From assembly GCF_000195755.1 (NCBI RefSeq), contig NC_005863.1:30001-62000 (forward strand): 32,000 nucleotides of DNA, written 5' to 3'. Positions 1-13,986 of the stretch are shown piece after piece. A program made the translations under genes and the position numbers. Origin of the DNA: Nitratidesulfovibrio vulgaris str. Hildenborough (GTDB taxonomy: Bacteria > Desulfobacterota > Desulfovibrionia > Desulfovibrionales > Desulfovibrionaceae). How positions within the stretch are numbered: the first letter of the stretch is position 1; each line of letters begins with the position of its first letter. A model generated the notes under the pieces. It was not told where the DNA came from. It saw nothing but the letters and a program-made list of their open reading frames with translations, and ran no database searches.

Positions 1-1241
1 CATCTTGCCCGCCCGGTCATGCATTCCGTGATGGCCGACGTCGGTCGAACGGCGCGCGGGCGTGCGCCCCTGCCACGGGCGGCTGCTCTGCGGGAGCATT
101 CCGGCGTGGATGGTGGCGGGCAGGTGTTCGGCGAAGAGCATGTCGCCATCGCCAGCCACGGCGAGGGTGCAGTCGATGACGTTGACCAGTTCACGCACGT
201 TACCGGGCCACGGATGGGCGAGAAGCCTCGCCCTGAACTCCGCCGACATCTGCCAGACCTTGCCGCCGTTGGATTCGGCCCGCGACTGGAGCAGGTGTTC
301 GGCTATCTCGATGATGTCCAGACCGCGTTCGCGCAACGGCGGCAGCAGCACGCGCATGGTGCTGATGCGGTACAGCAGGTCGTCGCGGAACGTGCCCTCG
401 CGCACCATCTCCTGAAGGTCCTTGTTGGTGGCCGCCACCAGCCTGAAGTCGCTCGACTCTTCACTGCCGCCACCCACCGGGCGATAGCGCCTCTCCTGCA
501 ACACGCGCAGGAACTTCTTCTGGAGCGACATGGGCAGTTCGCTGACCTCATCGAGGAAGAGCGTGCCGCCGTCAGCCTGCCTGATGAGGCCCACCCGCGA
601 TTTGGCCGCCCCGGTGAACGCCCCCTGCGAGTAGCCGAAGAGCAGGCTCTCCACGAGGTGTTCGGGCAGCGAGGCGCAGTCCACGGTGATGAGCGGGCCG
701 CCCCGGCGCTGGCTCATGCGGTGGATGGCGCGGGCGAAGAGTTCCTTGCCCGTGCCCGTCTCGCCTTGCAGCAGCACGTTCACGTCGGCATTGGACGAGC
801 GGGCGATGGTCTCGAACTGGGCACGCAACGCGGCGGACTGCCGAAGATGCCGAAGTCGCGCAAGTCCGGCCCTTCGGCCCCGTTGCCGCCGAAGGAGGGC
901 AGCCGCTCGAGCAGCGTCGTGATGGCGCGCGGGGCCTTGCCCTTGGGCATGTAGTTGAGTGCGCCGCTCAGCAGGGCCGCCTTGCCACGCTCGGGGTTGT
1001 ACCGTTCGGCCACGACGACCACCTGCGGGGCCGCCTGTGTGGAGCGCAGCCTCGGGATGCCTTCGAGCGCGTTGTCCATGCCCTCTTCAAGGACGACAAG
1101 CTGGCACGACGACGCGCGGCAATGCCTGATGCCGTCCTCAAGCGATGAGACGACCTTGAGGCTATGCCCGCCATCGGCGAACAGGCGCGAAAGATGCATG
1201 TACAGATCAGGCTGGTGCCCGATGAGCAGTACGTTGGCCAT
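1..1241 (-). pseudogene. sigma-54-dependent response-regulator-type activator (NtrC/AtoC/PrsR-like enhancer-binding protein); reading frame broken near nt 836-842; C-terminal HTH lies beyond the window start
   Basis: ATG 1241 follows an AAGGAA RBS and opens a CheY-like receiver (MANVLLIGHQ...NYMPKG) that runs into a stop at 780. A different minus-strand frame, open from about 838 to nt 1, reads SAALRAQFETIARSSNADVNVLLQGETGTGKELFARAIH...GYSQGAFTGAAK...TLFLDEVSEL...WPGNVRELVNVI. These are the Walker A, GAFTGA loop, Walker B and sensor regions of sigma-54 AAA+ activators. The frames abut at GIFGS/SAAL, as if one nucleotide were missing. This frame is absent from the ORF track because it has no stop inside the window. 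Confidence 0.7.
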
Positions 1242-1586
1242 GAAGCGTTCCTTTGCGTCACTCTCCATGTCAGGCGATGAAGGTGTGCGTTGGCGCGGAA
1301 CAGATTTGTGGGATAGTATAGTCATGGACTATGCAGCATATCCTATTAGAATGTTGATGCAGATAGTTTTATTGTTTTAATGCTATGGAATCATTGCGCA
1401 ATAGGTTAGTTTATTTTTAGTGGGCAGCCTGAAGATACATTATTTATATTCAAGTGGATTATATGAACGTATGCATGTCGTCGATCTGCGTTCTCATGAT
1501 GCGAATGTTGTATTGAAAATGCAGTCTATATAAGGTGAATACGTGTGAGCACAGCTTGTAGGGTGACACTGCAAATGGGGGTTGTT

Positions 1587-1997
1587 ATGCTTCAAGGAAT
1601 AATGTCAGGACGTATATCTTCTCGCAGTTCTAAGGCGCAGGACCGGAGGGACGCGCACCGTATCGAACTGATGAGCCCCTTCATTGTCTCTGCGACGTTC
1701 GACTCTGCGCATAGCCATCTGTGTCTTGCCCGCAACGTAGGCGTCGGTGGCCTGTTGCTGGAGTTCCAGACCGAAAGCGAGTTGTCCGGTGTCTCCGATG
1801 GATTCCGTTGCGTGCTCACGGATATGATGCCGGAAGGCTATCATACTATGCAGGATGTCCATTGTTCCGTGGAATGGCTGTACCGCAAGTTCGTCGGTGT
1901 CGCATTCAGCAGACCTTTCTTCATGAACCATGATGCTCTTCTTGAATGGATGAAAAGGGTACGCATGTCCTACAGGCTTGTGGAGAATGCAGACTAG
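1587..1997 (+). CDS. single-domain PilZ protein (putative c-di-GMP receptor), motif 2 degenerate
   Basis: Lies within ORF 1545..1997. RRDAHR (RxxxR) is followed at PilZ spacing by NVGVGG (D/NxSxxG with Ser->Gly). The C-terminal strand VGVAFSRPF resembles the other two PilZ ORFs here. ATG 1587 is preceded by GGGGG. The start is uncertain (GTG 1545, ATG 1575, 1587 or 1602). Confidence 0.6.
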   Translation: MLQGIMSGRISSRSSKAQDRRDAHRIELMSPFIVSATFDSAHSHLCLARNVGVGGLLLEFQTESELSGVSDGFRCVLTDMMPEGYHTMQDVHCSVEWLYRKFVGVAFSRPFFMNHDALLEWMKRVRMSYRLVENAD

Positions 1998-2056
1998 GGC
2001 ATCGCTCGGCGGTGCATACCCTGTATTGAACGCCATGAGTCATAGACAAACGAGGC

Positions 2057-2107
2057 GGAACATGAAGGCGTCTTCGCACGGCCTTCATGTTCCGTCTTGT
2101 TGTTGTG
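2057..2107. terminator. intrinsic terminator hairpin between convergent PilZ genes (probably bidirectional)
   Basis: Perfect 13-bp stem GGAACATGAAGGC / GCCTTCATGTTCC (2057-2069 / 2081-2093) with an 11-nt loop, followed by GTCTTGTTGTTGTG on the plus strand. On the minus strand the hairpin is followed by GCCTCGTTTGTCTATG. Confidence 0.6.
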
Positions 2108-2117
2108 ACGCAGAGCG

Positions 2118-2477
2118 TCAATAGTCTTGCGGATAGTATCCCTGCTGCTTGTAGTCGCCTTGCTGGTAGTAGTTCTTCATGTCCTCGTAGCTATGCAGTA
2201 AAGGGCCGGAGAACGATACGCCAACCTCCTTGCCGTAGCTCCACACTACTGAATAGTAGTGGTCGTGCAGAAAAGCAGGCTTGTAGTATTCTTCCTTGAC
2301 CTTGCCGTAGCTGCCGTAGCGCATGTCAGGGTCGTAGTCGCCTTGCAGTTGCAGACGCGCCCCACCCTGACTGATGTCCAGAAGCCTTGCGTAGTACTCT
2401 TCGCCGTTTATCTGGACGCTGCAATCATAGGCATAACCCTTCAGGTCAAGCCTCTGGTAGTTTCTGCGTTCTTGCAT
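2118..2477 (-). CDS. single-domain PilZ protein (c-di-GMP receptor), extremely tyrosine-rich with a YYQQGDYKQQGYYPQDY tail
   Basis: ATG 2477 is preceded by GGAGG. Canonical PilZ motifs RRNYQR (RxxxR) and DISQGG (DxSxxG) are present at the correct spacing. The upstream 107 codons of the 226-aa track ORF (2118..2798) have no RBS and a junk-like composition. 119 aa, 20 of them Tyr (hand count). Confidence 0.8.
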   Translation of the reverse strand: MQERRNYQRLDLKGYAYDCSVQINGEEYYARLLDISQGGARLQLQGDYDPDMRYGSYGKVKEEYYKPAFLHDHYYSVVWSYGKEVGVSFSGPLLHSYEDMKNYYQQGDYKQQGYYPQDY

Positions 2478-2760
2478 GGCTGTACCTCCAGCGTTGGTTG
2501 CGGTGCGCATCTGCCCACGGTCGCAGGCTTGCCGCGTCAAGGGCGTGCCTCGTTGCACGCAAGGGGAGGATGCAACTACCGTGCACGGCGCGCTTGCCGT
2601 GCCGGATGCGGTGCATTCCATAGAAAGTGTTTCATTTCGCATGGTTGTGAAGGCTGTGGGGGCGTGCTCGCTGAAGGATGCATAACTATCTGTTTTGCTA
2701 TCAGAAAGTCGATGCGAGGCGTTGTATCGGCGAATGGCAAGGCCTGTGACCTGCCGGAAG

Positions 2761-2797
2761 TGTTGCCTTATCCGACAACCTGTTGCGTTTTCCGACA
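2761..2797 (+). promoter_or_regulatory. two direct copies (20-bp period) of the 17-bp element TGTTGC(C/G)TT(A/T)TCCGACA; candidate enhancer-binding-protein site pair
   Basis: 2761-2777 is TGTTGCCTTATCCGACA and 2781-2797 is TGTTGCGTTTTCCGACA. Each differs at one position from the copy at 6809-6825. They lie in the non-coding spacer between the PilZ gene (start 2477) and the sigma-54 promoter at 3255. Confidence 0.45.
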
Positions 2798-3254
2798 TCG
2801 CCAGACGCCATCAGGCTATGCTGCGCCATGCCACGCCTGACCGGCGCCTGTCCGACGCCTGTCCCGTCATGGGCCCTTGCCGGACTCGTAAGGGGCCCAT
2901 GGCAGACCCGACTCCGTGCCCGCTTCATGCCGATGGCGCGCGGCGTTTCGCCCCGCCGCACGTCGTGCATCTGCATGATGCCACCCGCGTTTACCGCCAC
3001 CCTCAACGGTCTTGCCGACGCCACGCCACGTCTCGTGTGGGCTACCTGCGTCCCTATGCACGTGTCGCGGGCATTCGTCCCTCGCACGTCTGCGGGCGAT
3101 GGCTATCGCACGGACATGGTGAGGCCGTGCGGCGGGTCGCGTCGGGGTGCGCGCCTGCCGCGCACGGTTGCACCCCGTACTTGTAAAGGACGCAATCGTG
3201 GATGTTTCAGGGCTTTTTCCCTGAACTGCCGTAGTTATTGAAGCTTTTATAATA

Positions 3255-3270
3255 TGGAGTGCTACTTGCA
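3255..3270 (+). promoter_or_regulatory. sigma-54 (-24/-12) promoter for the PEP-CTERM gene 3321..4022
   Basis: TGGAGTGCTACTTGCA has GG and GC separated by exactly 10 nt, as in the consensus TGGCAC-N5-TTGCW. It ends 51 nt upstream of ATG 3321. An inverted repeat GTGCGCG-N5-CGCGCAC at 3147-3165 lies about 100 nt upstream. Confidence 0.65.
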
Positions 3271-3320
3271 AAAAATGCGTGAATAAACGCATACCAGTTC
3301 CGTCACTTCAGGAGGTTCTT

Positions 3321-4022
3321 ATGCGAGTGGCACGTTTGGCAGCGGCTTTGGCTCTGGTTCTGGCATTGGCATCCATCGGCAACGCGGCGACGATGGAGAT
3401 CTTCGTGCGTCCGGAAGGGGACGCCGTGGGGGGGCAGGAACGCTATGGATACGGTTCCCCCTGGTATCAACTCGACCGTGATGCCACGGCGAACCCCAAC
3501 GCGGTCTATCACTGGTATTCTGATGGGAGCGGCGCGGCGCGGTGGACGTTCCTCCAGTTCGACCTCTCGGACCTTGCCGGCCTGGCTGACGCGGTGACCG
3601 GTGCGACGTTCAACTTCAATCTGCTGCCCGACGGCTGGGGAGAAGGCACACGCGGCAACCTCAATCACCTTTCCAATGCAGCCACGGCGAACGGACAGGC
3701 GACCCAGGGGCTTGGCGGCGACCAGCCTGTGGGCAGCGTGACGTCGGCCACGATCCTTGGCTGGAACCATTTCGACGTGACAGAGTACATCAAGGCCGAC
3801 CTCGCGGCGGGGTTCTCATGGTCGGTGTTCTCGTTCAATCAGGTGGGCTATGCGGGGATGTTCTTCAGCAGCGGCGAGACCGAAGAGCGCTCGTACCTGC
3901 AGGTCACCTACAACGGCGGCACCGTCGACCCCAACCTGCCCACGCCCGAACCTTCTTCGGTGGTGCTGATGCTGCTTGGCGCGGCGGGTCTTCTCGCCAT
4001 GCGTCGCAAGGGCGTCATGTAG
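3321..4022 (+). CDS. PEP-CTERM sorting-domain protein with a DNRLRE/CBM96-like N-terminal domain
   Basis: ATG 3321 follows GGAGG. Signal peptide MRVARLAAALALVLALASIGNA. C-terminus PTPEPSSVVLMLLGAAGLLAMRRKGVM has the PEP motif, a TM helix and a basic cluster. The core ARWTFLQFDLSDLAGL..VTGATFNFNL resembles DNRLRE-type domains (from memory, not searched). Confidence 0.9.
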   Translation: MRVARLAAALALVLALASIGNAATMEIFVRPEGDAVGGQERYGYGSPWYQLDRDATANPNAVYHWYSDGSGAARWTFLQFDLSDLAGLADAVTGATFNFNLLPDGWGEGTRGNLNHLSNAATANGQATQGLGGDQPVGSVTSATILGWNHFDVTEYIKADLAAGFSWSVFSFNQVGYAGMFFSSGETEERSYLQVTYNGGTVDPNLPTPEPSSVVLMLLGAAGLLAMRRKGVM

Positions 4023-4070
4023 CACGAGGCGTTGCCTCCATCGCATCCTACATCGTCTGACGGGGAAACA

Positions 4071-4106
4071 GGGGCGGTACACGCAGGTGTGCCGCCCCTT
4101 CCTGTC
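4071..4106 (+). terminator. stem-loop downstream of the PEP-CTERM gene (weak U-tract)
   Basis: GGGGCGGTACAC-GCAG-GTGTGCCGCCCC (4071-4098) forms a 12-bp stem with one G:U pair, followed by TTCCTGTC. It lies 49 nt after stop 4022. Confidence 0.5.
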
Positions 4107-4289
4107 GCTGCCGTGCGGCAGTGAGCGGCTTTGGCGGAGGGTTCGCCCGCTTCGGCAGGGCAGTGTGCACCGTCGGGCCGAACTTGCACACGCAGGCTCG
4201 TCGCCCCTTCCTGTGGCTGCATGCAGCCAGTGGGCGGTGTGCGCGGAGGTTCGCCCGCTTCGGCAGGGGGCAGTGTGCATCGTCGGGCC
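4079..4289. repeat. two tandem copies of a ~109-110-bp non-coding unit
   Basis: Unit A (4079-4179) and unit B (4188-4289) both run from ACACGCAGG to CGTCGGGCC. They share the blocks CGCCCCTTCCTGT(C/G)GCTGC and GGAGG(G)TTCGCCCGCTTCGGCAGGG(GG)CAGTGTGCA(C/T)CGTCGGGCC. Each unit has an internal palindrome at about the equivalent place but with a different sequence: CTGCCGTGCGGCAG at 4108-4121 and GGCTGCATGCAGCC at 4215-4228. Confidence 0.75.
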
Positions 4290-4644
4290 ACGTCCGGCAC
4301 ACTTCGTGTTCCGCCTTCTCCTCCGCTTCCGTGCAGGCAGCCAGCGAAGACCGTGGGCCGGTGCGATGCGGGGGCGCGCTGCACTCGCGCCCACTGTGGA
4401 CGGCCCTCTGGATGTCTCCCCCGTCTGTCGGGAGCGAGAGGTGGCGCGTCGTGCCGGGCCCTCTCGCCACAAGCTGCGCATGTCGGGCGGCAGATGCGTC
4501 GCGTGCCCCGTGTGGTGTGTCGGCCCGGGTTCGGCCCCTGTGCGGCCCCTGTTCGACCTGAAGGCGGCCATGCGGGCGGCATCCCGGTTGTGGGCGCAGG
4601 CGTCGTTCCACCCCATAGCCACTCCCTCGGTGTGCCTCCGTGCC

Positions 4645-4687
4645 CCGCACACGAAGAGGCCGACCTCCACGTGGTGAAGGCCGGCCT
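4645..4687 (-). terminator. stem-loop downstream of the minus-strand PEP-CTERM gene 4717..5583
   Basis: The minus strand reads AGGCCGGCCTTCAC-CAC-GTGGAGGTCGGCCT, a 14-bp stem including two G:U pairs (plus-strand 4657-4687), followed by CTTCGTGTG. It starts 30 nt after the stop codon at 4717-4719. Confidence 0.5.
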
Positions 4688-4716
4688 GTTGTATCGTCAG
4701 GAACGAAGAGACAGGA

Positions 4717-5583
4717 CTAGGCGGTGCGCCGTGCGCGCCGCATCATCATGCCCAGTCCGCCAAGACCCATCAGCATCAGCACTGCCGACGCCGGTTCGGG
4801 GGTGGGCAGGGCGGTGATGGAGAGCAGGGTCTGGTGGGTCGTGGTGACGCCCTCGCTGGTCAGCCAGCCCACGGCATCGGCCGGGAGGCCAAGCAGGGTG
4901 CGGTAGGCCAGCGGAATGGGCGAGAACGACTTGGTGAAGTCCATCACGTAGTCGATGCCGTAGAAGTGGAAGGTCTCCTGCGTGACTTCGGGGTTCATGA
5001 GCACGAACACGTCCTGCTGTGTGCTGCCGGTGTTCGGGGTCTCGAAGAACTTGAAGTCCAGCGTGGTGGAGAACACGGGCAGCGACGTCGCCCCCGGAAG
5101 CTGCGGGATGAGCTGCAGGATGGCGCGTGCCGTGCCACTTTGCAGGGTGATGCTGTCGCCGGCAATGGCCTTGTTGCTGTGAGACAGCACAAGTCCGTTC
5201 ACGGCTGCGCCACCCGTGATCAGGGTACCGCCCACAGTGGGGGCGATGGAGATGGAACTGGTGGTGGCGCCGTTGTGGAAGACGTAGCCACTGCGGTTCG
5301 AGTATGTGTAGTCGCCCCACCGGAGGGTCGAGAAGCCGGGGGTGGTGACGGGGGCGGGCAGCATGACCCCGCCGTCGAAGAGGTAGGTGAGGCTCTTGCT
5401 GCCGATACCGGTGATGCCGTTGTTGGGGTCACCGGGGACGTTGGTGTCGTTGCGCGAGTTGGTCCACTCAACGAAGGCCCCGTCCACAGTGTATGTCCAT
5501 GAGGGGACGACCGCCGCCGATGCCGCCGTCTGCAAGAGCAGCGGGAAGAGCAGCGTGAGTGCGATGAGTGCGAGGCGTTTCAT
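4717..5583 (-). CDS. PEP-CTERM sorting-domain protein, paralog A (possibly the THxN-type PEP-CTERM family)
   Basis: ATG 5583 follows AGGAG. Signal peptide MKRLALIALTLLFPLLLQTAASA. C-terminus LPTPEPASAVLMLMGLGGLGMMMRRARRTA. Alignable along its full length with 5708..6568 (LPVFSTxLDFxFFETPN, DVFVLxNPEVTxETFHFYGxDYV). An HxN motif is present (LSHSN). Confidence 0.9.
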   Translation of the reverse strand: MKRLALIALTLLFPLLLQTAASAAVVPSWTYTVDGAFVEWTNSRNDTNVPGDPNNGITGIGSKSLTYLFDGGVMLPAPVTTPGFSTLRWGDYTYSNRSGYVFHNGATTSSISIAPTVGGTLITGGAAVNGLVLSHSNKAIAGDSITLQSGTARAILQLIPQLPGATSLPVFSTTLDFKFFETPNTGSTQQDVFVLMNPEVTQETFHFYGIDYVMDFTKSFSPIPLAYRTLLGLPADAVGWLTSEGVTTTHQTLLSITALPTPEPASAVLMLMGLGGLGMMMRRARRTA

Positions 5584-5610
5584 GACGAGTCTCCTGTGTC
5601 TTGTAGCTGC

Positions 5611-5640
5611 TTGCAGGAGCCTTGGTGAAGGCTCCTGCAA
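5611..5640 (-). promoter_or_regulatory. perfect 11-bp-stem hairpin between the tandem PEP-CTERM paralogs (attenuator, partial terminator or processing site)
   Basis: TTGCAGGAGCC-TTGGTGAA-GGCTCCTGCAA. No U-tract follows on the minus strand. No sigma-54 promoter was found between the hairpin and ATG 5583. Confidence 0.5.
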
Positions 5641-5663
5641 GTGTGTGGTCGTATTCGGGGCGG

Positions 5664-5680
5664 TGTAAGGTTCTCCGACA
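5664..5680 (+). promoter_or_regulatory. degenerate copy of the 17-bp TGTnnn-N5-CCGACA element
   Basis: TGTAAGGTTCTCCGACA. Its extension TTCTCCGACAGG (5671-5682) nearly matches the 12-mer TTTTCCGACAGG at 6816-6827 and 11052-11063. It lies in the spacer between the two PEP-CTERM paralogs. Confidence 0.35.
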
Positions 5681-5707
5681 GGGGTCGCTGCCGGGGGGGG
5701 CGGTGCG

Positions 5708-6568
5708 TTATGCCTGTGACCGGCGGCGCAGTCCGAAGAGGCCGAGCAGTCCGAGGCCCATCAGGATGATGGAGGTCGGTTCGGGGGTGGGCAGGGCGCG
5801 GATGCTGATCAGCGTATCGAAGGCGTTGTAGGCGTTCTCGGAGGTGATCCAGCCGACGGAACCGACGGGCAGGTTCAGCAGGGCGCGGTAGGTTTCGGGG
5901 ATGAGGCCGAACGAGCCGCCGAAGCTGAACACGTAGTCGACGCCGTAGAAGTGGAAGGTCTCTTCGGTCACTTCGGGGTTCAGCAGTACGAACACGTCGC
6001 TCTCGGTGTTCACGTTGCCGTTGGGGGTCTCGAAGAACAGGAAGTCGAGCTTGGTCGAGAAGACGGGCAGCGGCGGGTTGCCGGAGGGGGCGAGCGTCAG
6101 CACCGAGCGCACGACGCCGGACTTAAGCTGGATGGAGCCGCTGAGGATGGGCTGGTTGTAGTGGTACAGTTCCATGCCAAGCGACGTGGGGCCGTCGGTG
6201 ATCATGGTGCCACTGCGGGCGTTGATGCCGATGGAGCTGAGGTTGGCGCCGGGAATCTGGCTGTATACGGGGCCGGGGCCGCTCCATACGTAGTCGCCCC
6301 ACGCGATATGGCGATAACCCTTGGCCGACGTGCCGGGAGGAACCGGAACACCGCCGTCGAGGTTGTAGAACAGTTCTTCAGGCTCGAAGCCGGTGATGCC
6401 CTGGGCAGGCGTGTCTAACGTGCCGCTTGTGCCCACGGTGGTCTTCCAGCTGACGAAGATGCCGTCAACGGTGTAGTCCCATGCGGGGATGGGGGCTGCC
6501 AGTGCGTTGACCACCATCAGGGCGGTCAGGACCACGGTACCGAGAAGGGAAGAGAGCAGACGCTTCAT
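5708..6568 (-). CDS. PEP-CTERM sorting-domain protein, paralog B
   Basis: ATG 6568 follows AGGAGAAAAACC. Signal peptide MKRLLSSLLGTVVLTALMVVNALA. C-terminus LPTPEPTSIILMGLGLLGLFGLRRRSQA. HxN motif LYHYN. Confidence 0.9.
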   Translation of the reverse strand: MKRLLSSLLGTVVLTALMVVNALAAPIPAWDYTVDGIFVSWKTTVGTSGTLDTPAQGITGFEPEELFYNLDGGVPVPPGTSAKGYRHIAWGDYVWSGPGPVYSQIPGANLSSIGINARSGTMITDGPTSLGMELYHYNQPILSGSIQLKSGVVRSVLTLAPSGNPPLPVFSTKLDFLFFETPNGNVNTESDVFVLLNPEVTEETFHFYGVDYVFSFGGSFGLIPETYRALLNLPVGSVGWITSENAYNAFDTLISIRALPTPEPTSIILMGLGLLGLFGLRRRSQA

Positions 6569-6626
6569 GGTTTTTCTCCTCATTTCATGAGGTTAAAAAT
6601 TGCGTGAGCAAAGTTGCATGGTATTA

Positions 6627-6642
6627 AGCAATGACTGTTCCA
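6627..6642 (-). promoter_or_regulatory. sigma-54 (-24/-12) promoter for PEP-CTERM paralog B
   Basis: The minus strand reads TGGAACAGTCATTGCT, with GG and GC separated by exactly 10 nt. It ends 59 nt upstream of ATG 6568. An AT-rich tract (6644-6700) lies between the promoter and the upstream 17-bp elements, which would suit DNA bending. Confidence 0.65.
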
Positions 6643-6719
6643 ACAGTGCTTTTAATATATATTCAAGTGTGTTGGATGATGTTTTGAGCCTTGATACCCC
6701 TCTCGGCACAGGCTGGCGT

Positions 6720-6736
6720 TGTCAACCTATCCGACA
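6720..6736 (+). promoter_or_regulatory. 17-bp TGTnnn-N5-CCGACA element, proximal site upstream of the 6627-6642 promoter
   Basis: TGTCAACCTATCCGACA, about 80-110 nt upstream of the -24 element on the minus strand. Confidence 0.4.
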
Positions 6737-6808
6737 GATTCGGGGGGCGGCGCGGGTGACCGGGGCGAAAGCGGCGCGGGCCTTCCATTCGCGCTGATGA
6801 AGGGGGGG

Positions 6809-6825
6809 TGTTGCCTTTTCCGACA
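6809..6825 (+). promoter_or_regulatory. 17-bp TGTnnn-N5-CCGACA element, distal site upstream of the 6627-6642 promoter
   Basis: TGTTGCCTTTTCCGACA matches the copies at 2761 and 2781 at 16 of 17 positions. The 12-mer TTTTCCGACAGG is identical to 11052-11063. Confidence 0.5.
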
Positions 6826-7253
6826 GGGTGCCGGAGAGCGTGCACGGGGACGCAGGAGGGGCCGCGGGTCTGGACACCACGTGAGAGGTGGGCGTCAGGT
6901 GAGAGGCAGGCTGAAGAAGGCGGGCGAAAGTGAAGGGGGGGGCGATGTGCCCCCCCGTGTCATTGCATGCGGCGTCTCCCGCGGCCATTCCCGTGGCGCC
7001 TCGCCTCGTGGCGTCCTGCGCCTTCCTGCGCCCTCCTGTGCAGTCCGGCGTTGTTTGGCACTGTCGGGGGCGTCCGGGGCCGACCTCGTTCCCGGTTGTC
7101 CGGGGCCTCTCCGCCTGACCGGGGCTTCTCGGCTGCCCCGTACTGCCCCGGTGTCCGCCTTGGTCGGGCTGTGGGGCCGTCCTGCGACGTCTTCGGCACA
7201 TCCGCCTCATGCACCGCCTTCGAGGCCATCCGCCGTCACGCGCCTTCTCGCCC

Positions 7254-10223
7254 TCACTCGGCAGGCAGCAGGAAGTCCGACAGCGGACGACGGAACGTGC
7301 CATGCCGGATGGGTGCGGCGACACCGGCACGGAACATCATGACGGGCAGTCGTCCCTTGGGGTGGGGCAGCACCTGTTCGAGAAGCGTCCACGCCTCTTC
7401 CAGCAGGCGCTGATGTGCGGTGTCCAGCGTCTGCGGGTCGCCCATGGCGAGGCGCAGGTGCAGCAGGGGCAGGGCCGCCAGCGGTTGCATGGCATAGCCC
7501 ATGTGTTCGAGGGCGCACCACGCCCGTTGCCACGCCATGCCCGCGCGGGCGATGTCCGTCTCCGTCTCGCCGTTGGCCAGCAGCAGCCCGATGCCGCCGC
7601 TTCGCAGCACGCCCATCGCCCCGTGCAGGGGCATGAGGCGCCCGAGGCCGAGGGCGTTGGCGATGCTCATGTTGCGCCACGGCCTCACGGCACGCAGGTA
7701 CAGTTCACCGGCGAGTCCCGCTTCGAGGTTCGCCAGCGGCAGTCCGTCGCCGTATGGCCCGTTCCCGGCGTGGCTGTGATGCCCTGCCTGCCCGGTGTGC
7801 CCCTGTTGCCCGACCTCTCCCTGTTGCTCGGCCTGCCCGTCGAAGCGGATGAAGCGCATGAGGTGTTCATGCATGTCGCGCCGTTCGACGCGCACCCTGT
7901 CGGCGAGGTAGACGGCCCGCGCAAGGGTCTTGCGCTGCGCCGCGTCCGTCGCCCACAGGAGGGTGGCGTCCTGTTCCTCGCTGACGAGGTGCTCGATGCG
8001 CTCGCACACCTCCACGGGCAGGGGGCGCGCGGCGTACATGCGGCGGTTGGTGTGCCTGCGCCACAGGGCGGCGGTCATGATCTCGTGCGAGGGCACGCCC
8101 AGCGGCGTGCAGTGCAGCGAGGCCACACGGTCGGGCTTCGTGGCGTCGGGAAAGAGCGAGAGCGTGGCATCGAGTCCCGCGCTGCCCGAGGCGTAGACGG
8201 CGTTCTGCACCGCGGCCCCGCAGGCCAGCAGCGAGGCCACATGGCGGTAGTCGAAGAACGAGCCGTCGGCCTGCCTGTCGAGATGGATGTGCAGCCCCGT
8301 GGCATGGGGGACGAAGCGCCACGGCTGCACGTTGTCGCCGGAGGGTGCCTGCATGGCGGCGCGGGCCACGTAGTGCAGGGTCTCGAGCGGGATGTCCTGC
8401 CGCAGTGCCACCACGTCGGGTTCTGGCGGGGGCGGCGTGCCGGTGCGCGGCGCACCCATGAAGAACCGGCGGGCGATGGCGAGCTTCAGCCGTTGCAGCG
8501 GCGAGCGCAGTCCCTTGCGGAGCCTGCCCCGCACATGACGGCCCGTGAGCGGGTCGAACTGCCTGAAGTACGGCACGGGGCGTATGCCCCGGCGGTGCAG
8601 CAGGATGCGCACGGCTTCGGTGGCGGCCATGCCCGCACAGAGATGGCAGGCGATGTCCAGCGACGGCCCCCGCCTGTCGTGCAGGCTGACGAAGCGCCTG
8701 TCCATGTAGCCGAGGTGCGCCGGGCGCGGGGCCAGCCCCATGCCGAAGCGCAGGTAGCCCTCCATGGGGGGCGTGTCGTCGTCGATGCCGAAGTAGCTGT
8801 CGAAGTTCATGCCCCCCGGCATGAAGACGAGCAGGGCGCACGAATAGCCGAGCGGCCCGGCGGTTATGACCGGAATGCCCAGTTCGAGCGCGCGGTTGAA
8901 GAGCCTGCGGCGGATGTCGAGGGCGAAGAAGTCGATGCCGTCCACCAGCAGGTCGACATCCTTGAGGAAGGCGTCGATGGTCTCGGCGGCGACGCCCTCG
9001 GGGAAGGAGCGGATGTCGAGGAACGGGTTCACGCTGAGGGCGCGTTCGGTCATGACGTCGAGCTTGCCGCGCCCGAAGCTGGCGATGCTGGCCCCGTACT
9101 GCCGGTTGAGGTTCACCGGCGAATAGGCGTCGAAGTCGGCGAGGTTGAAGTTGCCGATGCCCGTGCGCGCCAGCGTCATCAGATGGATGCCTCCCACGCC
9201 GCCAAGCCCCGCGATGGCGACCCGCGAGCGCAAGAGTCTGCGTTGTCCCGCGTAGTCCACGAGGCCGAGGTTGCGGCTGAAGGCGATGTCGGTATAGGCG
9301 TCGCGCGTCTCGAGTTTGAGCATGTCCAGCGGTACGCCGCCGGGGGTCTCGGGGTGCACCGGGTTGGTCGAGAAGTGGTTGAACACCGCGCGGTGGTAGA
9401 TGGTCTCGATGTGGTCGCGCTGGGGTTCGGCCAGATGGTCGAGCAGTTCGGGGCGCTGCTGCAACAGATAATAGGCGGTGTACGGTTCCAGTGGCCTGTC
9501 GCGGCGCACGGGGTTCTCGGAGGTCTCGGTCTCGTCGCTGTTCATGCGGGCGAAGAAGGCGAAGAGGTTGGTCTCGAAGTCCTCCTCGTCGCCGTACTTC
9601 TCCTGCAACTCGTCCATGGCCTCGTGCAGGTCGATGCGCAGGGCCACCGCCGGGGCGTCCACCGTGTCGTAGTGGCGCACCTCGCCGAAGGGTTTGAAAA
9701 GGAAGATGTCGGTGTAGAACTTCACATGCTTCGGGTTCACGGTGACGAGGATGTCGTCCACCTCCGACATCATGGAGTACTGGAACATGGCCTTGGCGAG
9801 AAAGACCATGAGGTTCGTCCACCGGCGGCTGTACTGCGTGGCAAGCGCGCCCACCTCCACCACGTTGCGCCCCTGGGCGCGCAGGGCGTCCACCTCGGGC
9901 TTGTAGAGGGTGTCCATGGGCAGGCCGAACAGCCCGGAGTCGGGGATGTGGGTCAGCGTGCACAGCACGTCGTGGTAGCTTTTGAAGATGAAGACCGAGG
10001 TGGCGGGCAGAATGCTCCAGACATTGTAATACATTCTTGATGGATGCGGCTTGAGATAGCCCGAGCGGATGTACTCTTCGTACACGAGGCGGAAGGCCCG
10101 TGTATACTCGTCGGGCGTTTCCGCGATCTTGATGGCGGGCCTGTCCAGCGCCCCCAGCTTGTTCTGCAGGAGCGAGGAACGCTTGATGCGGATGGTACGG
10201 CGCTTGTCGGCGATGGCGAGCAT
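7254..10223 (-). CDS. 989-aa three-domain protein: FeeM-like N-acyl amino acid synthase (GNAT-fold) + ThiF/MoeB-type E1-like adenylyltransferase + tandem nitroreductase-like module (Rv1355c-like C-terminal two-thirds)
   Basis: ATG 10223 with GAGG upstream. aa ~30-205 (nt ~9609-10136): FRLVYEEYIRSGYL...GLFGLPMD...VVEVGALAT...ILVTVNPKHVKFY, as in FeeM/autoinducer-synthase-like acyltransferases. aa ~315-545 (nt ~8589-9281): VAIAGLGGVGGIHLMTLARTGIGNFNLADFDAYSPVNLNRQ (ThiF glycine loop and NLNRQ). aa ~605-985 (nt ~7269-8411): AMQAPSGDNVQPWRF and LWRRHTNRRMY (nitroreductase-fold signatures in two halves). A Gln/Gly/His low-complexity insert lies at aa 796-826. Confidence 0.9.
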   Translation of the reverse strand: MLAIADKRRTIRIKRSSLLQNKLGALDRPAIKIAETPDEYTRAFRLVYEEYIRSGYLKPHPSRMYYNVWSILPATSVFIFKSYHDVLCTLTHIPDSGLFGLPMDTLYKPEVDALRAQGRNVVEVGALATQYSRRWTNLMVFLAKAMFQYSMMSEVDDILVTVNPKHVKFYTDIFLFKPFGEVRHYDTVDAPAVALRIDLHEAMDELQEKYGDEEDFETNLFAFFARMNSDETETSENPVRRDRPLEPYTAYYLLQQRPELLDHLAEPQRDHIETIYHRAVFNHFSTNPVHPETPGGVPLDMLKLETRDAYTDIAFSRNLGLVDYAGQRRLLRSRVAIAGLGGVGGIHLMTLARTGIGNFNLADFDAYSPVNLNRQYGASIASFGRGKLDVMTERALSVNPFLDIRSFPEGVAAETIDAFLKDVDLLVDGIDFFALDIRRRLFNRALELGIPVITAGPLGYSCALLVFMPGGMNFDSYFGIDDDTPPMEGYLRFGMGLAPRPAHLGYMDRRFVSLHDRRGPSLDIACHLCAGMAATEAVRILLHRRGIRPVPYFRQFDPLTGRHVRGRLRKGLRSPLQRLKLAIARRFFMGAPRTGTPPPPEPDVVALRQDIPLETLHYVARAAMQAPSGDNVQPWRFVPHATGLHIHLDRQADGSFFDYRHVASLLACGAAVQNAVYASGSAGLDATLSLFPDATKPDRVASLHCTPLGVPSHEIMTAALWRRHTNRRMYAARPLPVEVCERIEHLVSEEQDATLLWATDAAQRKTLARAVYLADRVRVERRDMHEHLMRFIRFDGQAEQQGEVGQQGHTGQAGHHSHAGNGPYGDGLPLANLEAGLAGELYLRAVRPWRNMSIANALGLGRLMPLHGAMGVLRSGGIGLLLANGETETDIARAGMAWQRAWCALEHMGYAMQPLAALPLLHLRLAMGDPQTLDTAHQRLLEEAWTLLEQVLPHPKGRLPVMMFRAGVAAPIRHGTFRRPLSDFLLPAE

Positions 10224-10270
10224 GGTGACCTCGCGGAGGATGCTTCACGGTTGGGCAGCGTACCGGGTGA

Positions 10271-10286
10271 AGCCAGTTTCGTGCCA
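10271..10286 (-). promoter_or_regulatory. sigma-54 (-24/-12) promoter for the three-domain enzyme gene
   Basis: The minus strand reads TGGCACGAAACTGGCT, with GG and GC separated by exactly 10 nt. It has the same TGGCAC...TGGCT style as the prsT promoter. It ends 48 nt upstream of ATG 10223. Confidence 0.65.
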
Positions 10287-10307
10287 GCAACGTCAAGTGC
10301 GAGGTTT

Positions 10308-10336
10308 TTCGACAGTAAGGTGTCGGAATGCCGACC
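10308..10336. promoter_or_regulatory. cluster of TGTCGG/CCGACA half-sites between two divergent sigma-54 promoters
   Basis: TTCGACA (10308-10314), 6 nt, TGTCGG (10321-10326), AATG, CCGACC (10331-10336). The half-sites match the 17-bp element, but the spacings (N6 and N4) differ from the N5 seen elsewhere. Confidence 0.45.
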
Positions 10337-10377
10337 TTCGATTTCTGTAACTAGCTGTTTTTGCTCAAGACGTTTTT

Positions 10378-10393
10378 TGGCATGAATGTGGCA
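10378..10393 (+). promoter_or_regulatory. sigma-54 (-24/-12) promoter upstream of the third PilZ gene
   Basis: TGGCATGAATGTGGCA has GG and GC separated by exactly 10 nt, with a TGGCA -12 element. It ends 117 nt upstream of GTG 10510. Confidence 0.5.
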
Positions 10394-10509
10394 AGTGCTG
10401 GCTTTATGAAGCGTCTTTAAGGTTTGTTGTCTCGAGTACGACCCAAGGCACATGCGAGACCTGCATCGAATGACCTGTACGGCCACTGGACGCGGATGGA
10501 GGTGCGGAG

Positions 10510-11073
10510 GTGAAGAATGTTGCAGTCGACACACAGGCTGGTGCACGTCTTGCCGATGTAGCACAATGCCTTGAATGCCAGCCGGGACATCTCGCTTCGG
10601 GCATTCTCAATTCATTTTTCGAATGCAATGCAGTACACGGCGATGCAACGACGTCTGAAAAGCGCAGGCTTGGCAGACGGGCGACGCACATTGCAGCCGT
10701 CACCTGCGCATGTGATGGCGAGAACGAGAGCAGGTGCACACCTGCCATCATCAGTAACATCTCCCTTTGCGGTGTGCGGGCCGAGGTACCGCATTCGTCA
10801 TCCGGCTATGGTAGCATCATGCGCAAGGTCGGTGCATTCGAACTGATGTTCACGTTTCCTTCAGAAGACGAAGTGGTGACGTTCAAGTGCCGCATGAAGT
10901 ATGTGCTCGACGGCGAGCGTACGGTGCTTGGCGGGGCCTTCGTAAGTCCTGATATCGTTTCGCTTCGTGCGCTGGTGCGCTTTCTGTTGTCACCGCAGGC
11001 CCGGCCCGAGTCGTCGCAAACGCCTTGTCGGACAGGCTTACAGGTGTCGGGTTTTCCGACAGGCACGGCCTAG
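10510..11073 (+). CDS. PilZ-domain protein (putative c-di-GMP receptor) with a Cys-containing N-terminal extension
   Basis: RRLGRR (RxxxR) and NISLCG (NxSxxG) are present at PilZ spacing, with a C-terminal LGGAFVSPD strand. GTG 10510 overlaps a GGAGG. The start is uncertain and the true N-terminus could be further downstream. Confidence 0.55.
   Translation: MKNVAVDTQAGARLADVAQCLECQPGHLASGILNSFFECNAVHGDATTSEKRRLGRRATHIAAVTCACDGENESRCTPAIISNISLCGVRAEVPHSSSGYGSIMRKVGAFELMFTFPSEDEVVTFKCRMKYVLDGERTVLGGAFVSPDIVSLRALVRFLLSPQARPESSQTPCRTGLQVSGFPTGTA
11026..11061. promoter_or_regulatory. two adjacent 17-bp elements, one a perfect palindrome; candidate upstream activating sequence for the prsT-eps operon promoter
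   Basis: 11026-11042 is TGTCGGACAGGCTTACA (right half degenerate). 11045-11061 is TGTCGGGTTTTCCGACA (perfect 6-N5-6 inverted repeat). Centres are 19 nt apart. They lie about 210-245 nt upstream of the sigma-54 promoter at 11270 and overlap the 3' end of the PilZ ORF. Confidence 0.55.
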
Positions 11074-11269
11074 GGGCCGCACGAAGCCCCCCATCCGTCC
11101 TTCATGTGCCGTTCGTGTATACAACCCGTCCGTGAAATCAGGACGCCCGTCCCGTTTATCATGCGTGTCCTGATAAGCCGGACGGTTCAGGGGGGCTGCA
11201 AGACTCTAGACATTCTGTAACGTGTCTTCTTTGCACGCGTGGACGCGCCGGGGCCGAAGCCTCTGCGTG

Positions 11270-11285
11270 TGGCACGGTATTGGCT
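11270..11285 (+). promoter_or_regulatory. sigma-54 (-24/-12) promoter of the prsT-exopolysaccharide operon
   Basis: TGGCACGGTATTGGCT has a perfect TGGCAC -24 element and GG and GC separated by exactly 10 nt. It ends 41 nt upstream of GTG 11326, with RBS ACGGAGG at 11314-11320. Confidence 0.75.
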
Positions 11286-11325
11286 CTATACGGGGGAACA
11301 TCCGGCCCGAACAACGGAGGTTCCC

Positions 11326-13986
11326 GTGTGGAATAAGCTGTGCCTTTCCGTCTGCTGTGCGATTCTCGTTCTCACTGCCTCGTCATGCGGGGCGGACAAG
11401 TCATCGGACTTCCTCACCGAAGGGCGCAAGCTCATGGACGCGGGCAATGCCGCGGGTGCGGTGGTGCTGTTCCGCAATGCACTTGAGAAGACCCCCGCCG
11501 ATTATACACTGCACCTTGAACTGGGCAGGGCCTATATCGCCCTTGGCAAGCTCGACCTCGCCGAGGGCGAACTGCAGAAGTGCCTGCGCCAGCAACCCGA
11601 CGACCCGCCGCTGAACCTCGCCCTCGGCGAACTCTACGTGGCACGCAACGAACCGGCCAAGGCGCTGCCGCATCTGGCCCGCTACGAACAGGGCGCGGGC
11701 GAGACGGCCGTCTCGCGTGAACTGGCGGGGCTGGCCCATGCGCAGGCGCGGTCGCCGGAAGAGGCGCGCGCGGCCCTCGAACGCTCCATCGCCCTCGACG
11801 CCAAGCGCGTCACGCCACGTCTGGCGCTGGCGCGGCTGTTCCTCTACAGGGGCGACCTCAAGCGCGCCGTCGCCACCGTGGACGAGGCACTCGCCGTCGC
11901 CCCCGAAGACAGGTTGGCCCTCACGCTGCGTGGCGACCTGCTGCTGCGGCAGGGCGACGCGCCCGGTGCGTTGGTGGTGTTCCGCAAGGTCGCCAGCCTG
12001 GCCCCCGGCGACGACTATGCCCGCTACATGTCGGGCCTTCTGGCCCTGCAGACCGGCGACGAGGCCGGGGCCGCCGCCGTTGCGGCATCCATGAACAAGG
12101 ACTTCAAGGACAACTCGCTGACCCTGATGCTGGACGGCGCCCTCGCCGCGCAACGCAAGGACTACACGCTTGCGGCGTCGCTGTTCCAGCGCAGCGTGGC
12201 CATGCGTCCAAGCCTCGAGGGCTACTACAAGCTTGGCATGGCCCTCTACGGCAAGGGCGACCTCGAGACGGCCCTCAGCCAGTTCAACCGCGTGCTCGAA
12301 GCCACACCGGAATACGATGCGGCCCGCCGCATGACCGTCACCATCCTGCTTGCGCAACGGCGAGTGGCCGAGGCACGGCAGGAGGCGCAGAAGCTCGTGG
12401 AGCGCAACCCCTCCGACGCCGCGGCGCACTTCATGCTGGCCTCGGCGCAGATGGCGGCGGGCGACAGGGCCGGGGCCGAACGCTCGTTCGAGGCGGGGCT
12501 TGCCCTGCAACCGGCCCATGTGCCCGCACTCCTGCAACTCAGCCGCCTGAAGCAGGCCGACGGACGGCCCGACGAGGCGCTTGAAGACCTCAAGGCCGCC
12601 GTTGTCGCCGCACCCGACGACCTCGCCGTGCGCAACGCCCTCTTCGCCTACCATCTGGGACGGGGCGACACGGGCAAGGGCGTCCAGGTCGTCCTCGAGG
12701 GCCTGCGCGGCACTCCGCAGGACGCCATCCTCTACACCATGCTGGTGCCCGTCTACGTCAACATGGGCGACGAGGCGAAGGGCCTCGACGCGGTGGCGCA
12801 GGCGCACAGGGCCGACCCCGACTTCCCCGACGCCTACCTTGCCGGGCTGCGCCTCCACGCCGGGGCCGGCAGGGCGGAACAGGCCCTTGCCGAGAGCGAG
12901 GCCTATCTCGCCCGCAAGCCCGATGCTCCGGGCTTCCTGCTGGCGTCGGGCGCCCTGCTCGACCTTCTTGGCAGGACGGCGGAGGCCGACGCCCGCTTCG
13001 ACAAGGCGCTGGCCGCCAACGACCCCCGCGTCTCGTTCGCGGTGGCCGAACGCGCCGTGGCCTCGGGGCAGGACGAGAAGGCCCGCCGCGTTCTCGAAGA
13101 GGCCCTGCGGCAGCACGACCAGACGACCCTGCGCGACGCGCTCGCCATCCAGCTTGCGCGCATGGGCAAGCCCGACGACGCCCTCGCCCTCTATACCGCC
13201 ATCGAGACGCAACGCCCTCGCGAGGCGCTGCTGGGCCGCTACCGGCTGCTGACGCACCTCGACCGGCATCAGGAGGCGGCGGACACGGCACGTGAACTGG
13301 GACGGCGTGAGAGCGCGTCGCCGCTGCCCGTCCTGCTCGAAGCCGCCGCGTTCGAGCGCATGGGGCAGCGCCCGCAGGGCGTGGCCCTGCTCGAGGCGGC
13401 CCACCGCAAGAGCGGCGACCCCGAACTGCTGCTGGCCATGGGCGGTATGCTCGAACGCAACGGCGACGAGGCCCGTGCCGAGACCTGCTACCGCGACGCC
13501 CTCAAGGCGCGGCCCGACCATGTGCCCACCCTGCTGGCCTACGCGGGGCTGGACATGCGCCGCAAGGAGTACGCCAAGGCCACGGCCCTCTACGAGAAGG
13601 CCGTGAGCATCGCCCCCGACGACGTGGTGGCGCTGAACAACCTCGCCATGGCCTACCTCGAGAAGGCCAGCCGTGATGCGACGCCGCAGAAGGCCCTGCG
13701 TCTGGCGTTGCAGGCGTACACCCGCGCTCCCGACAACCCCGCCGTGCTCGACACCCTCGGCGTGTGCATGATGGCCAACGGACGTGCCGACGACGCAGCG
13801 CGCGCCTTCGGTCGTGCCGTGGTCGCCGTGCCCGGCAACCCGTCGCTGCGCTACCGCCATGCCGAGGCGCTCTTCAAGGCGGGCCGCAAGGACATGGCGG
13901 CTGAAGAACTGCGCGCGGCCCTTCAGACGCCCGACTTCCCCGAGGCGGCCAAGGCACGCGACCTGTTGCGCAAGACCGGCAACTGA
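11326..13986 (+). CDS. prsT: PEP-CTERM system TPR-repeat lipoprotein (PrsT family, TIGR02917-like)
   Basis: GTG 11326 follows GGAGG and gives (M)WNKLCLSVCCAILVLTASSCGADK, a lipoprotein-type signal with Cys. About 886 aa of back-to-back TPR repeats (AxxxLxxALxxxPxxxxAxxxLGxxY pattern throughout). The size and its position as first gene of the locus match PrsT. The track ORF start at 11239 lies upstream of the promoter. Confidence 0.85.
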   Translation: MWNKLCLSVCCAILVLTASSCGADKSSDFLTEGRKLMDAGNAAGAVVLFRNALEKTPADYTLHLELGRAYIALGKLDLAEGELQKCLRQQPDDPPLNLALGELYVARNEPAKALPHLARYEQGAGETAVSRELAGLAHAQARSPEEARAALERSIALDAKRVTPRLALARLFLYRGDLKRAVATVDEALAVAPEDRLALTLRGDLLLRQGDAPGALVVFRKVASLAPGDDYARYMSGLLALQTGDEAGAAAVAASMNKDFKDNSLTLMLDGALAAQRKDYTLAASLFQRSVAMRPSLEGYYKLGMALYGKGDLETALSQFNRVLEATPEYDAARRMTVTILLAQRRVAEARQEAQKLVERNPSDAAAHFMLASAQMAAGDRAGAERSFEAGLALQPAHVPALLQLSRLKQADGRPDEALEDLKAAVVAAPDDLAVRNALFAYHLGRGDTGKGVQVVLEGLRGTPQDAILYTMLVPVYVNMGDEAKGLDAVAQAHRADPDFPDAYLAGLRLHAGAGRAEQALAESEAYLARKPDAPGFLLASGALLDLLGRTAEADARFDKALAANDPRVSFAVAERAVASGQDEKARRVLEEALRQHDQTTLRDALAIQLARMGKPDDALALYTAIETQRPREALLGRYRLLTHLDRHQEAADTARELGRRESASPLPVLLEAAAFERMGQRPQGVALLEAAHRKSGDPELLLAMGGMLERNGDEARAETCYRDALKARPDHVPTLLAYAGLDMRRKEYAKATALYEKAVSIAPDDVVALNNLAMAYLEKASRDATPQKALRLALQAYTRAPDNPAVLDTLGVCMMANGRADDAARAFGRAVVAVPGNPSLRYRHAEALFKAGRKDMAAEELRAALQTPDFPEAAKARDLLRKTGN

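Follow-up and report, generated by a model that had tools for sequence, protein, structure and literature searches.

A predicted RHH-PilZ regulator and two small PilZ proteins in the PEP-CTERM/exosortase locus of the Desulfovibrio vulgaris Hildenborough megaplasmid

Introduction

MrkH of Klebsiella pneumoniae is a PilZ-containing transcriptional activator of type 3 fimbriae that depends on cyclic di-GMP (c-di-GMP). Ribbon-helix-helix (RHH) proteins are also tied to c-di-GMP and to exopolysaccharide (EPS) or the nucleoid, as in CdbA and CdbS of Myxococcus xanthus and AmrZ of Pseudomonas. In YcgR- and PlzD (VCA0042)-type proteins an RxxxR motif sits in the linker that connects an N-terminal domain to the PilZ barrel, and this linker closes over c-di-GMP so that the N-terminal domain is repositioned. 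Stand-alone PilZ adaptors such as MapZ (PA4608) and HapZ are established as well. Here we compare with these systems three small genes on megaplasmid pDV1 of D. vulgaris (Nitratidesulfovibrio vulgaris) Hildenborough, all of them found within a stretch of 32,000 nucleotides (contig NC_005863.1, positions 30,001 to 62,000), which we will call the window: cand1 (1587..1997, + strand), cand2 (2118..2477, - strand) and cand3 (10510..11073, + strand). They are the PilZ genes of an exosortase (XrtA)/PEP-CTERM locus (DVUA0026, DVUA0027 and DVUA0035).

Like MrkH, cand3 is a small, putative regulator with a C-terminal canonical PilZ domain as its predicted c-di-GMP sensor, placed with genes for a surface/biofilm structure. 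However, the N-terminal domain of MrkH is a PilZ-like beta-barrel (PilZN2) whereas that of cand3 is helical and RHH-like, so that the MrkH-type architecture is not found here, and the two proteins show no sequence relation beyond the PilZ domain. Cand3 carries RHH and PilZ on one polypeptide, which distinguishes it from CdbA, which binds c-di-GMP itself without a PilZ domain, from CdbS, which is a separate protein, and from AmrZ, which does not sense c-di-GMP. With YcgR and PlzD it shares the RxxxR motif in the inter-domain linker, and ligand binding could therefore reposition its N-terminal domain in the same manner; those proteins, though, have PilZN as this domain and act on the flagellar motor instead of DNA. 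Cand1 and cand2 are PilZ-only and similar in size to MapZ, PA0012 and HapZ, with no sequence similarity past the fold, and cand1 departs from these proteins in motif 2. With moderate confidence we therefore read the three genes as one c-di-GMP-gated RHH transcription factor (cand3) and two free PilZ adaptors (cand1 and cand2).

The locus belongs to the type for which sigma-54 control by PrsK/PrsR/PrsT was described (Haft 2006) and to the DVUA0057 regulon (Rajeev 2011; Kazakov 2015); PilZ and c-di-GMP go unmentioned in all three papers, and the signal input to PEP-CTERM/exosortase regulation beyond PrsK/PrsR has been a standing question since 2006 (Haft 2006). Already known are the control of the sigma-54 PEP-CTERM and prsT promoters by DVUA0057 (Rajeev 2011; Kazakov 2015), the published 1-nt deletion that makes the sigma-54 enhancer-binding protein (EBP) DVUA0025/DVUA0024 a pseudogene of strain Hildenborough, and the biofilm-linked expression of DVUA0034 (PMC6170446). 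The strain is a model sulfate reducer for biofilm and corrosion work. It makes and degrades c-di-GMP with characterised cyclases and phosphodiesterases, and its biofilm formation is impaired when pDV1 is lost (PMC4114195). No c-di-GMP receptor had been identified in it in the literature that we found, and cand1, cand2 and cand3 are concrete candidates for such receptors within a plasmid EPS/PEP-CTERM locus.

The searchable literature yielded no description of an RHH-PilZ fusion and nothing relevant on DVUA0026, DVUA0027 or DVUA0035 or on PilZ proteins in PEP-CTERM systems. In the main survey of PilZ domains MrkH is the sole transcription factor and the words "DNA-binding" and "ribbon" are absent, while RefSeq names cand3 a "PilZ domain-containing protein" or a "hypothetical protein". 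As far as our tools can tell, the following are new: the RHH-PilZ architecture and family, its pairing with FeeM/ThiF-nitroreductase genes (at PEP-CTERM loci) and GGDEF genes, the sigma-54 promoter of cand3, the position of the prsT enhancer inside the cand3 gene, and the placing of cand1 among the PilZ paralogs. If the prediction is true, the PilZ-RHH fusion would add a simple and easily testable architecture to the few c-di-GMP-responsive transcription factors, in a family that is small yet found in several lineages and several contexts, EPS operons and GGDEF/HD-GYP neighbourhoods among them.

Results and discussion

Three conserved genes with PilZ motifs

An initial sequence-only reading of the window had proposed three stand-alone PilZ paralogs among the PEP-CTERM genes, and the three open reading frames and the six motifs that it named are exactly where it placed them. 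The genes are real. GGAGG- or GGGGG-type ribosome-binding sites precede all three starts, which agree with alignments of homologs, and comparison with the relative L053 reveals purifying selection on each (dN/dS, the ratio of nonsynonymous to synonymous rates, is 0.12 for cand2 and 0.21 for cand3; for cand1 the proportions of nonsynonymous and synonymous differences, pN and pS, are 0.26 and 0.83). Spurious reading frames are ruled out by this conservation and by dN/dS, and the synteny of the genes, described below, is also conserved.

A PilZ profile built without the window sequences and their closest relatives ranked cand3 (E = 1e-28), cand2 (8e-4) and cand1 (0.097) as the top three of the 152 reading frames of the window, and the three families are homologous to one another by hhalign (E = 9e-5 to 1e-6). 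The RxxxR motif is found in all three proteins (RRDAHR in cand1, RRNYQR in cand2 and RRLGR in cand3) and is kept within each family. The second motif, (D/N)xSxxG, is expected some 20-30 residues after RxxxR; it is matched, at spacings of 24-26 residues, by DISQGG in cand2 and NISLCG in cand3, but not by NVGVGG in cand1. The Pfam PilZ model (PF07238, gathering cutoff 22.5 bits), a search that the sequence-only reading had proposed, recognises cand2 clearly (47.9 bits) but returns no match for cand1 and only 15.0 bits for cand3 by itself. A search of the PDB with the narrow family profiles of cand1 and cand2 found no PilZ domain, even for cand2, which is a bona fide PilZ protein, so this is an insensitive test.

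Cand3 is predicted to join an RHH domain to a PilZ barrel

The family profiles predict that cand3 (187 residues) is an N-terminal RHH domain (about residues 2-41, 10513..10632, + strand) joined via the RxxxR linker (residues 52-56) to a canonical PilZ barrel (residues 48-160, 10651..10989, + strand), with the linker between RHH and barrel and a conserved C-terminal end, CRTGLQVSGFPTG, at residues 173-185. A profile search against 1.84 billion representatives gathered 81 clusters at 50% identity, mostly of 160-190 residues. Of its 48 aligned members, 46 match Pfam PilZ at E<=0.05 (best 1.1e-14), and the cand3-type proteins of L001, L004 and L006 exceed the cutoff that cand3 misses. RxxxR and (D/N)xSxxG, the motifs that contact c-di-GMP, are found in all, or in no fewer than 90%, of these 48 sequences; in cand3 they read RRLGRR (residues 52-57) and NISLCG (residues 83-88), and R52, R56, S85 and G88 are each invariant or at least 90% conserved.

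The first ~45 residues of the family are also conserved and follow a beta-helix-helix pattern, as in ICFRTSKEVRDSIEKIRQKTKRSISSVIEEIIGCYL. Individual members match the Pfam models RHH_4, RHH_3, RHH_7, RHH_5, Arc, NikA-like and DUF6290, although Pfam calls no RHH on the window cand3 itself. When the N-terminal family profile was compared with the PDB, the top of the list held RHH DNA-binding proteins only (AvtR, 6.7e-6; a CopG-family RHH protein, 7e-5; MazE7, 1.1e-4; Arc, 1.3e-3), with CopG, ORF56 and AmrZ lower down. An RHH profile built without the window sequence still matches cand3 residues 6-38 at E = 1e-5. The secondary structure in an AlphaFold2 (AF2) model of cand3 (two helices, six strands and a C-terminal helix) has an order that fits RHH-PilZ, at low and unreliable confidence.

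The sequence-only reading had called all three proteins small and single-domain, which holds for cand1 and cand2 as PilZ-only proteins but, by these profiles, not for cand3 with its N-terminal RHH domain. It had also given the third reading frame the weakest support, whereas cand3 turns out to be the best conserved and most informative of the three. Because it appears as an RHH-PilZ two-domain protein, cand3 is likely a DNA-binding regulator, and probably a c-di-GMP-controlled gene switch, instead of a free adaptor.

Sigma-54 promoters and enhancer sites around the PilZ genes

A sigma-54 promoter of the -24/-12 type precedes cand3 at 10378..10393 (+ strand, TGGCATGAATGTGGCA) and is conserved: the block TTGGCATGAATGTGGCA (TGGCACAATTGTCGCA in L058), which holds the -24/-12 element, is the sole conserved block upstream of cand3 in four loci, and 12 of the 15 RHH-PilZ genes examined have a comparable element, its GG and GC intact, at a distance of 65-180 nt upstream. 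By our own estimate about 0.014 matches at >=9/11 positions would be expected by chance per 300-nt region. DVUA0034, divergent from cand3, has a sigma-54-like element of its own at 10271..10286 (- strand, TGGCACGAAACTGGCT), 48 nt upstream of its start and conserved in L053. Another sigma-54-like -24/-12 element, with the -25 G replaced by T, is found upstream of cand2 at 2571..2586 (- strand, GTGCACGGTAGTTGCA); it lies inside a 21-nt block that is invariant in the window, L053 and L055 while the flanks diverge, and it may act as a sigma-54 promoter. These three putative promoters are absent from the published list of D. vulgaris sigma-54 promoters. In the window as a whole TGGCAC-N5-TTGCW occurs, at <=2 mismatches, 16 times against 17.5 expected, which is not above chance, and for this reason we base the promoter calls on position and on conservation between species. 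The region upstream of cand1 (1326..1586) is AT-rich, with sigma-70-like hexamers and without a sigma-54 element.

The stop of cand3 (11073) lies 197 nt upstream of the published sigma-54 promoter of prsT (DVUA0036), which is found at 11270..11285 (+ strand; Kazakov 2015) and is invariant in three species; one PilZ gene thus does sit directly upstream of the prsT promoter, as had been read from the sequence. The longest prsT reading frame begins at 11239, upstream of its own promoter. The true start is likely the GTG at 11326, which follows a GGAGG and opens a lipoprotein-like signal, and this start fits the published position of the promoter, +29 counted from the annotated start.

The sigma-54 promoters and the TGTCGG-N8-ACA sites before DVUA0030, DVUA0032/0031 and DVUA0036 are the published ones, and the published promoter and enhancer sequences of all four genes are present verbatim in the window. 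This DVUA0057 enhancer motif occurs in 7 copies in the 32 kb, all within this regulatory zone. The two sites for prsT (11026..11061, + strand), listed as DVUA0036 -213 and -194 (Kazakov 2015 Additional file 4), fall within the final 50 nt of cand3, where they encode its conserved tail. The DNA of 11026..11061 is near-invariant in three species, third codon positions included, though the proteins are just 57% identical, and for this reason the tail of cand3 may be conserved for DNA, not protein.

Two further DVUA0057-type sites stand in tandem at 2761..2797 (- strand; TGTCGGATAAGGCAACA and TGTCGGAAAACGCAACA), about 175-210 nt upstream of the cand2 element, and both are kept in L053 and L055. 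Kazakov 2015 lists one of the two and assigns it to DVUA0030 at -560; the other, at 2781..2797, is absent from that list. Since the cand2 element is 175-210 nt downstream and the DVUA0030 start more than 460 nt away, their position suggests cand2 as the gene that these two sites serve, in place of DVUA0030 or in addition to it.

RHH-PilZ genes travel with a FeeM/ThiF-nitroreductase gene

DVUA0034 (7254..10223, - strand) encodes a 989-residue fusion of FeeM, ThiF and nitroreductase that matches NCBIfam PRK14852 over its full length at 2397 bits. FeeM is an N-acyl amino acid synthase. We anchored the survey of gene contexts on this gene, instead of on PilZ, and found an RHH-PilZ gene immediately upstream in five of the seven Desulfovibrionaceae that have the full-length FeeM-ThiF-nitroreductase gene. 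The two genes diverge in L001-L003 and share a strand in L004 and L006. They also adjoin in L053, L056 (N. liaohensis-type), L058 (Oleidesulfovibrio) and L070 (metagenomic), and probably in L059, where the neighbouring gene is truncated. DVUA0034 is thus a conserved partner gene of RHH-PilZ. FeeM, the ThiF-like E1 and the nitroreductase form one fusion in the window; in Halodesulfovibrio, Salidesulfovibrio, Pseudodesulfovibrio and the metagenomic locus (L004-L007, L070) FeeM is separate from ThiF-nitroreductase.

Genes of c-di-GMP turnover recur in these neighbourhoods, with GGDEF or HD-GYP genes adjoining RHH-PilZ in L058, L066 and L070. In L070 the order is CBS-PAS-GGDEF, RHH-PilZ, FeeM, ThiF-nitroreductase and a PEP-CTERM protein; L058 has an extra EBP, another PilZ and two GGDEF genes; and in L066, a distant member of the family lies beside a CBS-GGDEF gene and a REC-GAF-HD-GYP gene. 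Another distant member, in L060, heads a different polysaccharide operon (epimerase, GT2 synthase and YaiO), and some other contexts of the family are uninformative. An EBP gene followed by a PilZ gene also recurs, with a 4-nt overlap in L006 and 35 nt apart in L004.

The relatives that keep the whole arrangement have the gene order EBP, cand1, cand2 (opposite strand), PEP-CTERM genes, the FeeM-ThiF-nitroreductase gene, cand3 and PrsT, and their three PilZ proteins are 57-77% identical to those of the window. The notion that PilZ proteins are wired into the exosortase/EPS locus, put forward in the sequence-only reading, holds as far as sequence and gene context go, given the PilZ type of the proteins, their conservation together with the locus and the GGDEF and HD-GYP genes beside relatives of cand3; the free-adaptor mechanism that came with it is probably wrong for cand3, given its RHH-PilZ two-domain make-up.

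Such a mechanism could still be extended to all three proteins, which would then be free single-domain PilZ adaptors gating exosortase/EPS functions post-translationally, like the modules of BcsA and Alg44 but in trans. It would fit cand1 and cand2 as minimal PilZ-only proteins, the embedding of the PilZ genes in a complete XrtA/PEP-CTERM EPS gene set and the precedent of MapZ and HapZ. However, cand3 carries the extra RHH domain, in other genomes the PilZ genes travel with the EBP and FeeM/ThiF-nitroreductase genes and not with an EPS synthase, Wzc-like kinase or exosortase gene, and we know of no PilZ gating for Wzx/Wzy-type loci, to which this one, with its priming transferase, belongs. We consider such an arrangement quite improbable for the set of three, while an adaptor role of cand1 and cand2 is plausible.

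Cand2 is a canonical PilZ protein and cand1 a diverged PilZ-like one

Cand2 (119 residues; RRNYQR at residues 4-9, DISQGG at 34-39) is an ordinary, textbook minimal PilZ protein. All of its homologs belong to PF07238 and they fix its start at 2477. Past the PilZ domain it has a conserved Tyr/Gln-rich C-terminal tail, NYYQQGDYKQQGYYPQDY (residues 102-119; 2118..2170, - strand). Cand1 and cand2 both occur in the window organism and its close relatives only. An additional cand2-like PilZ paralog of 46% identity lies in L053 (3207..3584 of that locus), about 7 kb upstream of the EBP, and has no counterpart within the window.

Between the convergent cand1 and cand2 lies a hairpin (2050..2100, both strands) with a stem of 19-20 bp (GGAACATGAAGGC ... 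GCCTTCATGTTCC). It folds far more stably than shuffled sequence (z=-8.7 on the + strand and z=-6.4 on the - strand), and it looks like a putative bidirectional terminator common to both genes. The shared terminator of the sequence-only reading is thus confirmed as a hairpin, with the terminator role as a prediction; a simple terminator scan called none at 2050..2100.

Cand1 (136 residues; RRDAHR at residues 20-25, NVGVGG at 50-55) is transcribed divergently from the EBP gene. Its full length aligns with cand2 by BLASTP (E=7e-7), the two motifs falling in register, and by hhalign it aligns with the cand2 and cand3 families (E=5e-5 and 9e-5). An AF2 model of medium confidence (pLDDT 59, pTM 0.52) was compared with the PDB in Foldseek, where 15 of the 16 top matches were PilZ domains (E ~0.02, TM ~0.45), including MapZ/PA4608, PA0012, BcsA, PA2989-type, PlzA and Alg44; MapZ and PA0012 are the best structural matches, YcgR/PlzD-type structures are among the others, and the PilZ domain of MrkH is matched as well. 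The homologs of cand1 (57-69% identity) keep ERRHAxR and N(V/I)GxGG. On this evidence we file cand1 as a diverged, PilZ-like paralog of cand2.

The exchange of Ser for Gly in motif 2 of cand1, correctly spotted in the first reading, recurs as N-x-G-x-x-G in 4/4 homologs found. One or more of the proteins, and cand1 above all, may thus be degenerate PilZ domains without c-di-GMP binding, like PA2960 and XC1028; they would then serve as nucleotide-independent adaptors, and cand3, if among them, as an ordinary RHH repressor whose beta-barrel is an oligomerisation domain. The altered motif of cand1 and the failure of Pfam to recognise this protein speak for such a loss, as does the fact that stand-alone PilZ proteins are a class known to lose binding (Galperin & Chou preprint). 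Yet RxxxR is retained in all three proteins, both motifs are kept almost without exception in cand2 and the RHH-PilZ family, relatives have GGDEF and HD-GYP neighbours, and PilZ domains of fusion proteins "invariably retain" binding (Galperin & Chou preprint). We regard loss of binding as unlikely, if worth keeping in view for cand1.

A model for c-di-GMP input into the locus

The binding of c-di-GMP and of DNA, and the targets and partners that we infer for these PilZ proteins, can be combined as follows. Cand3 would be made from its own sigma-54 promoter once an EBP is active, would dimerise via its RHH domain and would bind an operator close to one of three places, namely the promoter of the divergent gene DVUA0034, that of cand3 itself or the prsT region. 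On binding, c-di-GMP would clamp the RxxxR linker of cand3 onto the barrel, as in YcgR/PlzD-type proteins, and the clamped linker would shift RHH geometry and DNA affinity, so that PEP-CTERM/EPS expression would then require the EBP signal plus c-di-GMP. Cand2 would work through contacts with other proteins, as perhaps would cand1.

The likeliest partner of cand1 and cand2 would be the adjacent sigma-54 EBP, with the EPS machinery as an alternative; gene context points to this pseudo-receiver EBP and not to synthase machinery, which is the best contextual hint available. The pseudo-receiver part of the EBP, DVUA0025, spans 780..1325 (- strand), and its AAA+/helix-turn-helix part, DVUA0024, runs on to the window edge in a different frame after a frameshift at ~837, which is evident from translation and from tblastn against the intact EBP of L053. 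In the receiver a Glu replaces the phospho-acceptor Asp (VLEEG) and the acidic pair is missing, as it is in the intact orthologs, and such a receiver is not expected to be phosphorylated. HapZ docks on a receiver domain (SagS), which is a precedent for the proposed contact between PilZ and pseudo-receiver. We also considered whether the EBP beside cand1 is the PrsR that drives the PEP-CTERM and prsT promoters. This was rejected: the intact L053 ortholog scores 269.7 bits against the PrsR model TIGR02915 (NCBIfam cutoff 502.6), and the published activator is DVUA0057.

Taken further, RHH-PilZ proteins, as so far undescribed c-di-GMP-gated factors expressed from sigma-54 promoters, would together with a pseudo-receiver EBP and free PilZ adaptors put the PEP-CTERM/exosortase system under c-di-GMP, acting via the FeeM/ThiF/nitroreductase gene and via prsT, whose enhancer sits in the cand3 coding sequence. 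We offer this wider scheme as tentative and consider it less likely than not.

Several observations weigh against our reading of the locus. The known activator of the PEP-CTERM and prsT promoters, DVUA0057, needs no PilZ protein (Rajeev 2011; Kazakov 2015), and the neighbouring EBP is a pseudogene in strain Hildenborough, because of which part of the circuit may be inactive there. Cand1 lacks the Ser of motif 2, neither it nor its homolog P0003 has a match in Pfam or NCBIfam, and its hhalign probabilities are just 60-68%. For cand3, the window protein itself matches RHH at a modest 18.7 bits, the beta-strand KNVAVD has fewer basic and polar residues than typical DNA-reading RHH strands, and the AF2 model (pLDDT 35, from a 5-sequence alignment) is unusable and was kept out of the fold search, so that the two-domain fold rests on sequence profiles. 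A search of the cand3/DVUA0034 intergenic region for an operator gave weak repeats and no conserved operator. One palindrome there, GTCGGAATGCCGAC (10322..10335), was rejected as an operator, having the wrong spacing for the DVUA0057 motif and no conservation in L053.

The N-terminal 45 residues of cand3 might accordingly be read as a helix pair for dimerisation or partner docking, with cand3 an adaptor whose regulatory target is the DVUA0034 enzyme or the EBP. The weak RHH strand signature in the window subfamily, the failed structure model and the operator search would all fit such a role. It is, in our opinion, very unlikely, as the best PDB matches of the family N-terminal profile are all RHH DNA-binding proteins, several family members match Pfam RHH models and a position at a divergent promoter, such as that of cand3, is typical for a local regulator.

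Other features of the locus

Pfam and NCBIfam searches identified a canonical XrtA/PEP-CTERM EPS gene set in the window, comprising PrsT, a TIGR03013 priming transferase, an export protein, a chain-length determinant, a tyrosine kinase, an ATPase, a TIGR03016 outer-membrane protein, a deacetylase and a FemAB-like protein, along with three PEP-CTERM proteins, two of them of the THxN family. An Rfam search of positions 1..12000 matched no family, hence no c-di-GMP riboswitch. The G+C content of the three PilZ genes is 52-57% (0.60-0.69 at third codon positions), far below that of DVUA0034 (67%, and 0.90 at third positions). Between two convergent PEP-CTERM genes lies a GC-rich stretch of ~700 bp (4023..4716) without a credible gene. 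A tandem duplication of ~109 bp is found at 4079..4289, in two copies whose aligned blocks are 74-100% identical, and an 11-nt repeat occupies 4520..4555 inside the same GC-rich stretch.

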